Assembly: GCA_044342185.1 (NCBI GenBank)
Contig: JBIIQG010000001.1
Span: forward strand, 70,020-134,019
Length of the DNA stretch: 64,000 bases
Reading direction: 5' to 3'
Source: Ilumatobacteraceae bacterium
GTDB lineage: Bacteria > Actinomycetota > Acidimicrobiia > Acidimicrobiales > Ilumatobacteraceae
Shown here: piece by piece, positions 28,047-35,738 of the stretch
Position numbering within the stretch: the stretch's first letter is position 1
Layout: every line of letters starts with the position of its first letter
The notes under the pieces: model-generated
What the model was told of the DNA's origin: nothing
The model's input: only the letters and a program-made list of their open reading frames with translations
The model's database searches: none
Made by a program: the position numbers and the translations under genes

Positions 28047-28733
28047 GTGCGTCGCATGAGCGACCAACGAGACCGAATTCAGGCACTTCTTACTCTGGCG
28101 CAACACCCCAACACGCCCCAGGCCGAGGCAGAAACCGCACTGGCTCTCGCATCAAAACTTATGCAAAAGCACGGCCTGTCAGAAAGTGACATTGCCGACT
28201 CTGCTCCCGCAGAAGACACAGAAGTTGTCATTCGTACATTCCTTATTGGTGGTCCGTACCGCGTGCGGCGCAAAGACCTGTTGTGGCACATTGCGCGCTT
28301 GCATTCATGTGCGGGCTACCGCGCATTCGACGACGATGACGACAACTGCGTCATGGTTCTCTACGGACGCGACAGCGACATCACTGCTGCGTACACCCTT
28401 TTCTGCGCAGCAGACTTACTTGGCGCTCGTGTGTTACCACGCGGAGACCGCTCGTGGCGCACTGCATGGTGGAATGGTTTCACGCAAGGAATTGTGGAAG
28501 CGCTCAACACATCACGGAAAGAATTCATCAGCGAAACACCAGGTTCAGGCTTGGTACTTGCAAGTCGCATGGATCGCGCAGCACGCGAGATGCGCGCTAC
28601 TGCTCCTCCGTTATCAGGAAGTCGCTCCTACACCGACACATCGTCTGGTGCATACGCAAATGGTCGCGCTGCCGGACAAGGTTTCTCCACCGGCGGACGT
28701 TCGTTCACCAGCGGAGTCCGCGGCGAATTATGA
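28047..28733 (+). CDS. DUF2786 domain protein
   Basis: N-terminal RIQALLTLAQHPNTPQAEAETALALASKLMQKHGL is the DUF2786 signature. Confidence 0.7.
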   Translation: MRRMSDQRDRIQALLTLAQHPNTPQAEAETALALASKLMQKHGLSESDIADSAPAEDTEVVIRTFLIGGPYRVRRKDLLWHIARLHSCAGYRAFDDDDDNCVMVLYGRDSDITAAYTLFCAADLLGARVLPRGDRSWRTAWWNGFTQGIVEALNTSRKEFISETPGSGLVLASRMDRAAREMRATAPPLSGSRSYTDTSSGAYANGRAAGQGFSTGGRSFTSGVRGEL

Positions 28734-29209
28734 GCCTCAGCATTCACGAACTTGTGGTCAGAGCAGAAACTGCCGCTACACGGTTTCCACGGTGCTCACG
28801 AGAACAGGCGCTCACGTATGCATGTGAATACGTTGCTGACGAAATTGTGGGGGCCCGCATTATGGAAGCCCACGAACTGGATGACTGGCTGCAATCGGTG
28901 TGCCACCGAGAAGACATCGATGTTCCTACTCTTCAGATCGCAAAAGCCAGACCGCGCACTCTTGCTTCCACAGACATTGATTCCCTCTCTATTTGTCTCT
29001 ATGGGCGTAACACCACGTTGTCTACCCTCTTGCACGAAGTGGCTCACGCCTCTGTTCGTCTCGACGGTCATGGCGTTCTGTTTCGCGATGAACTCGTGCG
29101 TCTCACCCGCGCCCATCTCTCTGTCGACTACGCAGCGCTTCTACATTCGTTGTTTGTAGGGCTGGGCCTAGACGCAGCACCATGGGGTGCAAGCGCCCAC
29201 CGTCGCTAA
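28730..29209 (+). CDS. putative zinc metallohydrolase (HExxH; SprT-like / TIGR04338-like)
   Basis: ATGA overlap with the DUF2786 gene. LLHEVAHASVRLDGHGVLF contains HExxH followed by a GHG segment. The family name is from memory. Confidence 0.55.
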   Translation: MSLSIHELVVRAETAATRFPRCSREQALTYACEYVADEIVGARIMEAHELDDWLQSVCHREDIDVPTLQIAKARPRTLASTDIDSLSICLYGRNTTLSTLLHEVAHASVRLDGHGVLFRDELVRLTRAHLSVDYAALLHSLFVGLGLDAAPWGASAHRR

Positions 29210-31348: not shown

Positions 31349-32151
31349 GGACGCTGTCCTGTCGTAAGAAATTGACGAGCGTCAATCATCGCTTGCTTGT
31401 CTTGCCCCGAAAAGATGTGTCCGCCCTCATAGATAGCCAGTGAAGCATCGGGGATTCGCTTCACAATCTCTTCAGAATTCGATGGTGGGGCAATTCCGTC
31501 ATATCGGCCTGCCATCACAAACGTAGGAGCGGTCACACGATGCAGGCGGTCTGCAACGTCGTGTCCAATTCGTGTAACCAACTGAAGTCGTTCACCGCGA
31601 ATCACATCGGGGGACTTGGGGCGAGCAGCTTGTTCGTTTCTCATGGCCACCATTTGCGCATCTGCTGCATGTTCCGCAAGCCACGTGGGGGTCCATCGCG
31701 TGTCGGTCAGTTCTGTCACCTTGCGCGCACGCTCGTCTGGAGAAAGAGATCCCAACTCGTGCAACGGATACGAAGACCCCGCATTTCCACCAGCCGACGT
31801 ACACATCAGAACTAGTCGCTCAACGCGCTGTGGATAAGTCACAGCAAACTCTTGAGCAACCATGCCACCAAAGCTGATTCCGAACACAGCACAAGTTTCC
31901 CAACCAACATGATCGAGCAGAGCTGCACCATCTTGTGCGTACTGCTGCATGGTGTACGGGCCGTCAGGAATGCTTGTACGACCAAGCCCGCGTTGATCAT
32001 GTGCAAGAACCGTGCACTGCTTTGCAAGTGCAGAGATAAGCAATTGCGTGGATTCCAATGTTGCACCAGAACCATTGAAGAAAAGAACACGCTGGCCTTC
32101 GCCGCTGATCTCGTAATTGATGGTGATGTCTGATTGCTCGAAGAATGGCAC
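31345..32151 (-). CDS. alpha/beta hydrolase
   Basis: GISFGG (GxSxG) nucleophile elbow. Start placed at GTG 32151, giving MPFFEQSDITINYEISGEGQRVLFFNGSG, a typical N-terminus. The track ORF extends to 32337 with implausible sequence. Confidence 0.8.
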   Translation of the reverse strand: MPFFEQSDITINYEISGEGQRVLFFNGSGATLESTQLLISALAKQCTVLAHDQRGLGRTSIPDGPYTMQQYAQDGAALLDHVGWETCAVFGISFGGMVAQEFAVTYPQRVERLVLMCTSAGGNAGSSYPLHELGSLSPDERARKVTELTDTRWTPTWLAEHAADAQMVAMRNEQAARPKSPDVIRGERLQLVTRIGHDVADRLHRVTAPTFVMAGRYDGIAPPSNSEEIVKRIPDASLAIYEGGHIFSGQDKQAMIDARQFLTTGQRP

Positions 32152-32338
32152 GATGCAAGTGTGGCACCGACAGGGGTATCCACCATTCACGGACCAAAAC
32201 AAGCCACTATCAAGACCCGTGCACACGATTGTGGAAGAAGTGAAACGCTCGCTCGCAGAGCAACACAGTTCCCTCTCATGGCGTCGAGTCACAATGCCTG
32301 GTCTCTCCGTTGCGTGGGTGGGACTGAATGTTCCCACC

Positions 32339-32830
32339 GTGGAAACCGGAGGGCGGCCGTGGGTGTGGGAAGTAGTTACTCCCGATCAATACGACTCGTC
32401 ACAACGTCTGCAAGACGACCCACTTGTGCTTTCCGTTGCGCACGACACGGTTGTGGCCGAAATTTCTCACGCCGACCATTCCGGCCCCATTGTGCGAATG
32501 CAAGTTCCTGTTCGCGAAACGCCGTCCGAAATCTCTCTCCCTGGCCCCCGGTCCCACGCTGGTCACTGGAATGTTCGCTTGGAAACCGGGTGGACCCTCC
32601 AGACCTTGGGGGCCGCCGCCCAGTGCTGGATTGACCGCGAAGCCCCTGGAACGGCTCGCCTGCAGACCCCAGCGGAGCCCGTTTCTTCGCCCCAGCTCTA
32701 TCAGTTGCACCCTGCTATCAATATCGAGTCGGCAGCCTTCGACCACTTGCTTACACTCGATCCCGATGACGCAGCCGAAGTCACTTCCCTTCTCTCCCAG
32801 GTTCACGAGGCACTTCGGCCGTATCGCTAA
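32339..32830 (+). CDS. orphan hypothetical protein (GC-rich, start uncertain)
   Basis: Frame of the 32117 ORF. Candidate starts are ATG 32294, GTG 32339 and GTG 32363 (GGAGGG 9 nt upstream). No recognisable motif. Three other frames are also open here. Confidence 0.4.
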   Translation: METGGRPWVWEVVTPDQYDSSQRLQDDPLVLSVAHDTVVAEISHADHSGPIVRMQVPVRETPSEISLPGPRSHAGHWNVRLETGWTLQTLGAAAQCWIDREAPGTARLQTPAEPVSSPQLYQLHPAINIESAAFDHLLTLDPDDAAEVTSLLSQVHEALRPYR

Positions 32831-32857
32831 TGCCATGGGCCACGGGAGGACCACCCC

Positions 32858-34339
32858 GTGATCACAACATTTGCCACCACCCTCACCGCCGTCGATTATT
32901 CCGAACGCGACCGCATCACCCTTGTTGACCTTGTCACCGACTGGCAGATGGAGCATTACCCATTTGACGAGAATGCTCCTGGAACTTCCGTTCGTGTGCG
33001 CGAAGGTACAGACGACCCCGTGTTTCGACTCACCATCACACAGAGCGCAACCGGAAAGCCATATGCACAGACAATTACCGCAACTGTTGTAGCGCTAGAC
33101 AGCATTCTGCTTTTCGATTTACGAATCGTTGCTACGCCAACAACCGTTCGCGTAGCACCGTATGTAGTGCAACCACTGCCGCCGCATGTCGTGCGGTTGG
33201 TGAATTCAGTACTTGCTTCCGTTCGCATGGAAGATGCAAACGAGTACCTCAGTGGAACCACATCTGTCATCACTACCGAAGATGGTGGCGCTCGTGTTGG
33301 TGCTCTGGTTCATGCTCCGCGACGAACACTTCCCGTTGTTGTTGAGATTGTTGACTTTGTAAATGGCGCTGCGCCAATTCTTCCGAATGCTCTTGGCCCA
33401 CTCACTGGTCTTGTCCATCAATTTCGCATCACCACGCCAGATGCACTTCGCGGATACTTGTCGCTAGCCGGCACCGCACTCACTGGTCCAGGCCACTTGC
33501 TCGTTCACTGGGCCGGATCATTAGAGCCGCACATTGAACGACGACAAGATGTTCGCGCCGGACAAGAGTTTTCTGTTGTACAACGGCTTGCCACTCTGAT
33601 TACCGAAATTGCAGCGCGAACGGTGAGTGCACCGCGACTACCGCCCCCGCCGCGTTACGAAGACGACCCCATCGTGGAGTCGAATCGCGATACTGCAACT
33701 GACGACGACGAAGTTGATGATCAGGCCTTACATATTGAGCAACTTGAAGCCACTGTGGAAGACATGCAAGCTGCACTTGCTGATGCCGACCGCATCATTG
33801 CGGAACAACGCATCCAAATTGAACAAAAGGGTGGTCAATTAGACGAACTCATCCTGCGCAATGTGTCTTTGGAGATTCAAGCGGGCAGCACTCCTCAAGT
33901 GCGCGCAGTTGCTTCTATGAAAGAAGCCCTTCGCCTTGCACAAGACCATTGTCCACAACTTGTATTTCACGAACGTGCGCTGGAGTCGGGAGAACACCTT
34001 GAAGGTCCAGAGCCCGTGAGTGTTCTTCAAGATCTTGTCCGCTTAAACGAAGTAGCTCGTGCATGGCGTGCCGGAGAAATCTCTGGCACCAGCATCGTGT
34101 TGGCGTGTCGTCAAATGGGACTCGACTTTGCGCCGCGTATATCTGATAACGCACGTCAGAAATTTGAAGAGGACTATCTCATCACGTGGCGTGGAGAAAC
34201 TGTTCGTGCAGAAGCGCACTTGCGTCGCGGAAGAAAAGCTCACCTCGTGCGTATTCATGTGTATTTCGACCAAGAGACGCAAGAGGTAGTAGTGGCCTAC
34301 ATCGGCCGGCACCTACGCGACAAGGGCACCCAGTCCTGA
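32858..34339 (+). CDS. orphan modular protein (N-domain / acidic-Pro linker / coiled coil / C-terminal RelE-ParE-like tail)
   Basis: GTG 32858 lies 7 nt after GGGAGGA. 493 aa. Heptad-like IEQLEATVEDMQAALADADRIIAEQRIQIEQKGGQLDELILRN. C-terminus HLVRIHVYFDQETQEVVVAYIGRHL. Confidence 0.6.
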   Translation: MITTFATTLTAVDYSERDRITLVDLVTDWQMEHYPFDENAPGTSVRVREGTDDPVFRLTITQSATGKPYAQTITATVVALDSILLFDLRIVATPTTVRVAPYVVQPLPPHVVRLVNSVLASVRMEDANEYLSGTTSVITTEDGGARVGALVHAPRRTLPVVVEIVDFVNGAAPILPNALGPLTGLVHQFRITTPDALRGYLSLAGTALTGPGHLLVHWAGSLEPHIERRQDVRAGQEFSVVQRLATLITEIAARTVSAPRLPPPPRYEDDPIVESNRDTATDDDEVDDQALHIEQLEATVEDMQAALADADRIIAEQRIQIEQKGGQLDELILRNVSLEIQAGSTPQVRAVASMKEALRLAQDHCPQLVFHERALESGEHLEGPEPVSVLQDLVRLNEVARAWRAGEISGTSIVLACRQMGLDFAPRISDNARQKFEEDYLITWRGETVRAEAHLRRGRKAHLVRIHVYFDQETQEVVVAYIGRHLRDKGTQS

Positions 34340-34358: not shown

Positions 34359-35738
34359 ATGAGCCGTCGCAAGATTCTGCAAGTACTTGCTGGCGCCATC
34401 ACCTTCTTTGTGGCTCTCACGGGTTTTTCTGCTGGGCGTTATGTATTGGCAAATCCGAATGAACCGCTACAACAGAACCTGGCGTCGTGGGCTCGCAATA
34501 AAGGGCTTGGTGGAGTTGTCGACCAACTTGAAGCGTGGCTTCACAACGACCCGCCCGCCGTAGCACCAGCAGACACATTGGCTCTTCTTCCTGCCGACAC
34601 TGAACCACCCCAAGACACCCTCGCGCCCCCCACCAGCATCGGTTCACCAACATCGTCTGTTCCAAGCAGTACGGGGTCCACCACCACCCTTAAGCCGGGA
34701 GGAAGTTCAGCTCCTGCACAACAAACATCTCGGGTGCGCACTGCAAGTTGTCCAAACATTGGTCCCACCACCACAACAACTATTGAACCCACCACCACTG
34801 CGGTGCCCACCACAACAACCACTTCTACTACAACAACAAGTTCCACGATTCCTGGCGAAACAACCACGACAACAACAACCACAACCACACTTCCTGCTCG
34901 TCCTACCGATATCACCCCACAGGTCACTCCAGCGTTGCGTGGTGAAGGTGAATGGGTATCGGTGATGCGTGTGCGCACGAAGCCCATCATTTACGCAAGT
35001 TCAATTCGCCCGTTGTGGTGCTACGGATCTGTTGTGGCCACCATGGCAACGTACGACCCAAACAAAGTACGAGCAGCTTTGTTTAACGGAAATGAAGTAC
35101 CTGGCGGAAGAGGGTGGCGCAACACATCGAAGATCAAGGGCTCTGCAAAGAAATCCCTCATTGCAAGTTTCAACGGTGGATTCCGCTTTGAACATTCACC
35201 CGGCGGATATGTCACTGAAGGAAAGATTGTTCAGAAAATGCGTAAGGGCTATGCCACGTTTGGCATTCGCGCAGATGGCACAAGCACCGTCGGTGTGTGG
35301 GGCAAGAACATGACCAATGACGGAACATGGACTTCGCTGCGACAGAACCTTCCACCACTCGTCCATGAAGGAAAAGTGGTGTACCACACGTACGACAAAG
35401 TTGACTGGGGTAAAGACTTTGGAAACAAGGTGTACAACTTCCGTTCTGCTGTGTGTGTGCGTACCGACGGGCTCATGATGTTTGTTGCCGTCGGAAAAGT
35501 GAACATCGCATTGCTTGCCGACACTCTCTTAGTACTCGGATGTTCCACTGCAATGGAACTCGACATCAACGGAACATGGCCTTTCTTCGCTGTGTACCAA
35601 GACTTCGGAAAGATTGATCGCGTTGGCCGCACAATCGATACGCGCATGGGCGACCCACAACGACACCTCAACGGTTCTACAAAAGACTTTTTTGGTCTTT
35701 TCGACCCGGAAACTCTTGCCCCAGGTTCTGTTCGTTAA
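34359..35738 (+). CDS. membrane-anchored phosphodiester glycosidase (NAGPA/DUF2233) family protein
   Basis: N-terminal TM anchor, Pro/Thr-rich linker, C-terminal domain with SFNGGFRF...GYATFGIRADGT...RSAVCVRTDG...AMELDINGT pattern. Confidence 0.7.
   Translation: MSRRKILQVLAGAITFFVALTGFSAGRYVLANPNEPLQQNLASWARNKGLGGVVDQLEAWLHNDPPAVAPADTLALLPADTEPPQDTLAPPTSIGSPTSSVPSSTGSTTTLKPGGSSAPAQQTSRVRTASCPNIGPTTTTTIEPTTTAVPTTTTTSTTTTSSTIPGETTTTTTTTTTLPARPTDITPQVTPALRGEGEWVSVMRVRTKPIIYASSIRPLWCYGSVVATMATYDPNKVRAALFNGNEVPGGRGWRNTSKIKGSAKKSLIASFNGGFRFEHSPGGYVTEGKIVQKMRKGYATFGIRADGTSTVGVWGKNMTNDGTWTSLRQNLPPLVHEGKVVYHTYDKVDWGKDFGNKVYNFRSAVCVRTDGLMMFVAVGKVNIALLADTLLVLGCSTAMELDINGTWPFFAVYQDFGKIDRVGRTIDTRMGDPQRHLNGSTKDFFGLFDPETLAPGSVR
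34764..34890 (+). repeat. coding low-complexity ACC/ACA (poly-Thr) tract
   Basis: Encodes TTTTTIEPTTTAVPTTTTTSTTTTSSTIPGETTTTTTTTTT. The antisense strand gives a spurious poly-Val ORF. Confidence 0.8.

Follow-up and report, generated by a model that had tools for sequence, protein, structure and literature searches.

A highly divergent HEC-07-family protein with a predicted RelE-like RNase domain at a conserved locus of freshwater Ilumatobacteraceae

HEC-07 (Hma-embedded candidate 07) was described as a single-gene candidate defence system embedded in Hma systems, and it is among the seven candidates that lowered phage plaquing in E. coli (Payne et al., bioRxiv 10.1101/2024.01.29.577857). Its validated representative, WP_039244286.1 of P. 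aeruginosa, consists of 549 amino acids (aa) and was reported to combine AdoMetDC-like, thioredoxin-like and RelE (HP0892-like) domains, with a conserved histidine, H543 (10.1101/2024.01.29.577857). NsnC of Menshen carries a C-terminal PB-BECR1 domain with an H-R-H triad (Li et al., NAR 2025, PMC12065111), and the C-terminal domains of both HEC-07 and NsnC have been assigned to RelE/BECR (10.1101/2024.01.29.577857; PMC12065111). Here we analyse a 493-aa protein encoded in a stretch of 64,000 nucleotides, hereafter the window, from Ilumatobacteraceae bacterium (assembly GCA_044342185.1, contig JBIIQG010000001.1, positions 70,020 to 134,019 of the forward strand). Its coding sequence, including the stop codon, occupies window positions 32858-34339 on the plus strand, and an earlier examination of the letters and translations (the sequence-only reading) had taken it for an orphan. 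The protein is probably a divergent full-length member of HEC-07, that is, a single-polypeptide sensor-effector consisting of a two-domain N-terminal region, an acidic linker, a coiled coil and a PB-BECR1/RelE-like RNase domain.

All four PADLOC HEC-07 models (PDLC04161, PDLC04158, 04159 and 04160) match the window protein, PDLC04161 aligning residues 276-489 with profile positions 325-551 of 553 (E=3.6e-15). These matches cover only the C-terminal half of the protein, and a coverage filter might therefore not call it. An exhaustive HMMER search with the C-terminal domain profile of its clade retrieved 1038 protein clusters at E<=1e-3, 264 of them at E<=1e-10, and in these relatives, most of them 480-550 aa long, the module nearly always forms the very C-terminal end. 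Seventy-eight long relatives from this search were taken as a sample of the superfamily; every one of them matches PADLOC HEC-07 (best E=3e-63), and Pfam detected no domains in the 78 sequences except stray TPR or coiled-coil matches. Alignment of the clade with the superfamily by hhalign spanned 487 columns, from residues 1-492 to positions 20-539 of 546 (100%, E=1.7e-67). Since six superfamily members are near to the clade, the comparison was repeated without them and still extended over 482 columns (100%, E=2e-57), with the N-terminal 260 residues alone giving 99.0% and E=3.5e-18. For the validated HEC-07, the first 399 residues of WP_039244286.1 were used in all comparisons (preprint Supplementary Table S2); this N-terminus aligned with the superfamily (99.2%, E=6e-20), and in a phmmer search it matched dozens of superfamily members plus one member of the window clade (P0119, E=6.6e-5). 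These profile comparisons identify the protein as a highly divergent homologue of HEC-07 over its full length, and not as a novel fusion.

The label of orphan is not tenable. A search of 5.8 billion proteins gave 136 matches; over 100 of these span the full length (485-512 aa), with identities of 45-98%, and the named ones came from metagenome-assembled genomes (MAGs) of Actinomycetota/Ilumatobacteraceae. In GTDB contigs, sampled as one genome per species, 101 stretches encode a relative, of which 78 distinct loci were kept, with identity down to 27%; all 78 belong to freshwater Acidimicrobiia (acIV), encode full-length proteins except where contig ends cut them, and include a closest locus, from a Lake Erken MAG, at 98% identity. 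The sequence-only reading had also been unable to place the protein in any described system, which the matches to PADLOC HEC-07 and, as given below, to NsnC now do. A HEC-07 / PB-BECR1 assignment thus replaces the false label for a protein missed by Pfam, NCBIfam and PHROGs, in which no model matches any part of the 493 residues; the observation that the N-terminal region holds no recognised family motif stands in this sense. With more than 1000 clusters at 50% identity, the HEC-07 family is far larger than its Hma-embedded proteobacterial examples, and it reaches into uncultured freshwater Actinomycetota.

The open reading frame (ORF) described earlier is confirmed. It begins with GTG, preceded at a distance of 7 nt by a Shine-Dalgarno-like GGGAGGA read from the sequence (32844-32850, plus strand), and this start is backed by an N-terminus, MITT[YF]A, that is kept in orthologues and corresponds to MxxxYA in the superfamily. 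All parts of the protein described below lie on the same strand. N-terminal domain 1 (residues 1-121, 32858-33220), delimited by AlphaFold and by homology to the N-terminus of the HEC-07 superfamily, has a predicted beta-alpha-beta4-alpha topology that is TBP-like or like a unit of AdoMetDC (pLDDT, the per-residue model confidence, mostly >85); in a Foldseek search with the full-length model it gave weak matches to YwmB, DcrB, PsbP and TBP-like proteins (best E=2.7e-3), and it is presumed to be a sensor or regulatory domain. N-terminal domain 2 (residues 130-255, 33245-33622) is alpha/beta according to the AlphaFold secondary structure and bears the motifs P-x-R-x-LPVV, GL(A/V)H and (Y/H)W(P/A)G, common to the superfamily consensus and the validated HEC-07. 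It is followed by a P-x-x-PPPPR motif (residues 259-266) and an acidic disordered linker extending to about residue 288 (together 33632-33721), recognised in the clade alignment and by AlphaFold. The acidic, proline-containing linker that had been noticed earlier is confirmed by 11 D/E and 6 P among the 32 residues 259-290, with disorder predicted at residues 270-282. In its fuller form, P-(R/H)-(L/V/I)-P-P-P-P-R (33632-33655), the proline motif is invariant in the clade, where the acidic linker downstream of it varies in length, and is not conserved across the wider HEC-07 superfamily. Four prolines in a row constitute a ribosome-stalling, EF-P-dependent sequence.

The heptad stretch pointed out by the sequence-only reading also holds up. 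Residues 283-342 (33704-33883) are modelled by AlphaFold as one long helix, whose best heptad register has a hydrophobic a/d occupancy of 0.76, reached by 56 of 5000 shuffles, or by 13 of 5000 when LIVMF only are counted. In a profile search of the PDB with the protein, only GCN4-type coiled coils matched, all within this helix; whether queried by single sequence or by profile, the PDB returned nothing beyond such coiled-coil matches, and a search of a viral structure library gave no significant match. The helix is a probable coiled-coil dimerisation stalk. It leads to the C-terminal PB-BECR1 / RelE-like RNase domain (residues 354-487, 33917-34318), assigned from PADLOC NsnC and HEC-07, AlphaFold, Foldseek and the literature; this C-terminal third, including the tail, is the most conserved region of the protein.

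Three NsnC models (PDLC03879, 03912 and 03914) match residues 347-487, PDLC03879 aligning them with profile positions 175-304 of 305 (E=6e-10). Because weak matches of the N-terminal domain swamped the Foldseek search with the full-length model, residues 345-493 were modelled alone with AlphaFold. The resulting model (pLDDT 87.8, predicted template modelling score 0.85) consists of a short strand, helices and then a five-stranded antiparallel sheet, and the 30 best Foldseek matches in the PDB are almost all RelE-superfamily toxins, with template modelling scores on the target of 0.41-0.52; they include RelE (4FXE/2KC8), ParE-like PfiT, HigB2, YoeB, MqsR, HigB and M. tuberculosis RelE/HigB1. 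The RelE/BECR-type assignment of the C-terminal domain is thus supported by the HEC-07 and NsnC family links and by a structural match list dominated by RelE proteins. The topology of the model as a whole (beta-alpha-beta4-alpha, alpha/beta, RelE-like) is compatible with the domain order described for HEC-07, at the weak Foldseek values of E>=2.7e-3 for N-terminal domain 1 and 0.015 at best for the C-terminal domain. The earlier likening of the tail to RelE/ParE toxins is supported through the same family links and through this match list, whose E-values are weak; no classical Pfam model matches.

Conservation in the clade and in the superfamily (89 sequences) delimits a span of putative active-site residues at 34175-34312. 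It comprises Y440 (34175-34177) and H454 (34217-34219), both 100% conserved in the superfamily, R465 (34250-34252; 87%), D471 (34268-34270; 97%) and H485 (34310-34312), at whose position the superfamily has H in 73% and K in 27%; all five are invariant within the clade. H454, R465 and H485 are candidates for the natural counterpart of the published PB-BECR1 H-R-H triad. H485 is also likely to be equivalent to H543 of HEC-07: the second His of G-H-V-G-x-H stands 6-8 residues before the C-terminus in the nearest relatives of HEC-07, a position that fits H543 of a 549-aa protein, and this equivalence is drawn indirectly because the compared HEC-07 sequence ends before its C-terminus. The ratio of nonsynonymous to synonymous substitution rates (dN/dS) of the C-terminal domain is 0.02, so the effector is kept functional.

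The likeness to HEC-07 therefore extends from the length class (~500-550 aa), with homology over the whole protein, through the N-terminal motifs P-x-R-x-(LP)VV, G-(L/V)-A/V-H-V and (Y/H)W/K-P/A-G and the helical or coiled-coil middle, to a C-terminal RelE-like domain with a conserved His. The architecture that the sequence-only reading had compared to conflict proteins equals that of HEC-07, a described conflict protein. The window protein differs in being very divergent, in its location outside any Hma system or defence island, in its vertical, core-like inheritance in Acidimicrobiia under purifying selection of housekeeping level, in the Tyr that replaces His481 in its clade, and in the company of a clade-specific partner gene upstream, HEC-07 being a single-gene system. 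With Menshen it shares only a C-terminal module of ~140 residues, which matches the NsnC models over their whole C-terminal domain; NsnC has an inactive-PIN N-terminal domain, whereas the N-terminal fold of the window protein is not PIN-like, and neither an NsnA (ParB-DUF262 + ParBDB) nor an NsnB (ABC ATPase/DUF3696) gene adjoins it. A Menshen system was consequently rejected, the neighbouring abhydrolase, partner, NAGPA and lactamase_B genes matching no Nsn model. The type II toxins RelE, YafQ, HigB and YoeB resemble the C-terminal domain in predicted fold class: helices precede an antiparallel sheet whose final strands, together with the C-terminal tail, hold the catalytic residues, which are putative in the window protein. 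They are small stand-alone proteins (about 80-110 aa) accompanied by a small DNA-binding antitoxin, whereas the window domain measures ~140 aa with helical insertions, is fused to an N-terminal region of 350 aa, has no sequence-level match to the classical families and is accompanied by no such antitoxin. A classical type II toxin was also rejected, since the domain forms the C-terminus of a 493-aa protein and the upstream 203-aa protein has no antitoxin, helix-turn-helix or ribbon-helix-helix signature. The module occurs outside the ~500-aa architecture too: a 238-aa protein of Euzebya pacifica plasmid pEDY32-46I (L087, 8713-9429) carries the PB-BECR1-like C-terminal module only (34% identical to residues 354-493); its gene has MerR and AAA-ATPase genes beside it, and a gene for a DUF262 protein lies 7 kb away.

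Taken together, the architecture would most likely correspond to an autoinhibited RNase sensor-effector. The coiled coil would dimerise the protein while the RNase is kept silent; the two N-terminal domains would sense a trigger and release the RNase, which may then cleave cellular or invader RNA and arrest translation. In the validated HEC-07, the trigger would be phage infection. From the family and the architecture we infer that the protein has RNase activity, that this activity is autoinhibited, that a trigger releases it and that it may serve defence in this organism.

Several points weigh against this interpretation. The direct match of the clade profile to the validated HEC-07 is weak (6.9%, E=0.005), so that the link between them is transitive, through the superfamily, although the direct alignment stays in register through the P-x-R-x-x-VV and G-x-(A/V)-H-V motifs. 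The mechanism of HEC-07 is itself putative, no mutational test of its His being found in the preprint (10.1101/2024.01.29.577857), and for the window clade the case for an RNase is made from architecture and family membership. The Foldseek E-values of the C-terminal domain to RelE toxins are weak, the best being 0.015; no classical RelE/ParE/YafQ/HigB Pfam model matches this domain in 20 clade members, even at E<=10; and when its profile was compared by local hhalign with the E. coli toxins YafQ, RelE, YoeB and HigB, no signal appeared, a negative of little weight given the unverified toxin sequences. Position 481, the first His of G-H-V-G-x-H, is His in 64% of the superfamily and Tyr in this clade. 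Finally, the surroundings do not resemble those of a defence gene: none of the 10 neighbours matches PADLOC, no tRNA or mobile-element landmark lies nearby (the only tRNA of the window is 26 kb away), and the gene shows strict synteny, with dN/dS and synonymous divergence (dS) equal to those of enzyme-coding neighbours.

The gene indeed behaves like one of the core genome. Loci at >=41% identity all share one block of metabolic and transport genes, with occasional insertions; upstream the order is ABC transporter, DUF2786, a 159-aa ORF, nitroreductase, sulfatase, abhydrolase and then the 203-aa partner, and downstream NAGPA, lactamase_B, asparaginase II, AI-2E transporter, MPAB_Lcp_cat and AlkZ-like. 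None of these loci contains defence genes, so that homologues in this lineage sit consistently in core-genome contexts and not in defence islands, a pattern that the sequence-only reading had named as counting against its interpretation. None of the genomes in the listed loci carries the gene twice, both apparent duplicates being one gene split over contig ends. GC content is uniform. Pairwise dN/dS amounts to 0.04-0.06 for the whole gene, 0.03-0.09 for the N-terminal region and 0.03-0.10 for the neighbours, and dS equals that of the neighbours in the closest pairs (L005, L076), being saturated and uninformative at greater divergence. The locus is vertically co-inherited under purifying selection, without an arms-race signal, and in freshwater Ilumatobacteraceae the gene appears chromosomally fixed. 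Cargo of a prophage or island was rejected on the basis of uniform GC content, synteny and dS equal to the neighbours. The defence or abortive-infection label given earlier finds no support in this context; a defence role is plausible from homology, through family membership.

These data bear most directly on a domesticated housekeeping RNase, namely a HEC-07-type protein fixed in Acidimicrobiia and now serving RNA turnover, ribosome quality control, or growth or stress control. It is the main rival explanation, possible if rather unlikely, and the context favours it over defence of the island type. Synteny is strict from 98% down to 41% identity, each genome has one copy, no defence genes are in the vicinity, and a dN/dS of 0.04-0.06 is accompanied by no raised rate in the presumed sensor. 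Other clades add to this: one with a 473-aa protein occupies a partly orthologous locus, and a third lies stably beside a divergent DeaD RNA helicase gene. The family is, moreover, rare on plasmids and absent from phages at the search sensitivity used, the window protein as query giving two partial matches among plasmids (a Euzebya megaplasmid and a Cupriavidus chromid) and none among phage genomes. Against domestication, antiphage activity is all that experiment has shown for the family; at the protein level the N-terminal region changes roughly 3-4 times as fast as the C-terminal domain, as defence sensors do; and a core location is compatible with defence.

We propose, tentatively, that a defence-type sensor-RNase of the HEC-07 family could have been captured as a vertically inherited, single-copy core gene in the abundant freshwater acIV Acidimicrobiia and could have recruited a new clade-specific partner. 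If so, it might serve as "hard-wired" innate immunity in these lineages, or might instead regulate translation and RNA turnover, with the partner as a modulator. What is notable is that, in an uncultured and ecologically dominant freshwater lineage, a conflict-system protein has the behaviour of a core gene and a new partner beside it; being syntenic and single copy, with dN/dS of about 0.05, it offers a tractable case for distinguishing constitutive immunity from domestication for cellular RNA control, and the conserved partner gene provides an experimental handle.

This partner gene, to which no function is assigned, lies on the plus strand at 32219-32830 and encodes 203 aa from the GTG at 32219, the start used in most called homologues, although the longest ORF starts at 32117. 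Its stop codon precedes the HEC-07-like gene by 27 bp, and wherever a locus of >=41% identity has upstream sequence, the partner is found at -0.7 kb, on the same strand; the two genes are probably co-transcribed. A scan for promoters and terminators gave nothing above chance. The partner is better conserved across loci than the HEC-07-like protein (57-72% vs 46-61% identity) and has a dN/dS of 0.09-0.17, and its homologues, all at least 50% identical and about 200 aa long, are confined to Ilumatobacteraceae/Acidimicrobiales. It has no match in Pfam, NCBIfam, PADLOC or PHROGs and no sequence relative in the PDB, and it is unrelated to every region of the HEC-07 protein, so it is no duplicate of it.

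Such an arrangement would suit a toxin-antitoxin-like pair, in which the 203-aa protein acts as an antitoxin or inhibitor of the RelE-like domain within an addiction or stress module. The partner is always directly upstream, on the same strand and separated by a gap of 27 bp, and is under purifying selection; an antitoxin-first gene order is known from relBE, and the order here is the same. We nevertheless regard this explanation as improbable. The partner is restricted to the window clade, being absent from the 473-aa clade, the DeaD-linked clade and the validated HEC-07, which works as a single gene; it has no DNA-binding or antitoxin family signature detectable with Pfam, NCBIfam, PADLOC or PDB sequences; and, with the entire block syntenic, its linkage to the HEC-07-like gene is inseparable from common ancestry. 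The locus bears no other mark of a toxin-antitoxin system, being single copy in a conserved block with no tested neighbour matching a defence model. Still further down, and very improbable, is a catalytically dead scaffold that would only bind RNA or the ribosome, for which the Tyr at position 481 and the lack of a classical RelE catalytic motif recognisable by sequence may be cited, against the clade-invariant Y440, H454, R465, D471 and H485, strongly conserved in the superfamily, and against a C-terminal domain that is the most constrained region of the protein; this and the toxin-antitoxin-like pair are both less likely than domestication. The autoinhibited sensor-effector of HEC-07 type accordingly stays our preferred interpretation.

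The other clades mentioned above have features of their own. The 473-aa HEC-07-like protein, with the N-terminus MITTFGASL, belongs to a second and very abundant freshwater actinobacterial clade (L083, L084, P0276-P0386) represented by hundreds of metagenome clusters; its locus shares AI-2E_transport, MPAB_Lcp_cat, DUF885 and Peptidase_M14 genes with the window block. In the third clade, also of Acidimicrobiia (L066, L067, L069-L072, L074, L075, L078, L079), the protein is 26-36% identical to that of the window and its gene has a different but stable position, adjoining a divergently oriented DEAD-box RNA helicase gene (DeaD/DbpA domains) and a gene for a Bmp-type substrate-binding protein. 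Downstream, the closest loci (L066, L067, L069, L071, L079) have an ORF like an extracytoplasmic function (ECF) sigma factor. The helicase adjacency could hint at a role in RNA metabolism. In L085/L086 (P0273, 537 aa), a divergent HEC-07-like gene stands head to head with a Metallophos + AAA_15/SMC_N (SbcCD-like) pair, surroundings that may represent a defence-type neighbourhood, unlike that of the window.

Within the window block, the gene immediately downstream (34359-35738) encodes an NAGPA-type phosphodiester glycosidase (PF09992), which has a hydrophobic segment at its N-terminus and a long low-complexity linker rich in Thr and Pro, with runs of up to 9 Thr. It may be co-transcribed with the HEC-07-like gene, from which it is separated by a gap of only 19 bp; some relatives have a DUF885 gene between these two genes. 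Further upstream (28047-29209), a gene for a DUF2786 protein (PF10979; phrog_421, E=5e-28) is followed by the 159-aa ORF, which has no assigned family. The PHROG match makes this pair look phage-derived, but nearly all Ilumatobacteraceae loci keep it at the corresponding place in the block, so it is no recent prophage remnant. Several public MAG records with the Ilumatobacteraceae syntenic block (L007, L009, L010, L011, L025, L029, L034, L040, L045, L073, L079) are titled "uncultured Bifidobacterium sp." or "Bifidobacterium breve", which looks like taxonomic mislabelling in the deposited assemblies.

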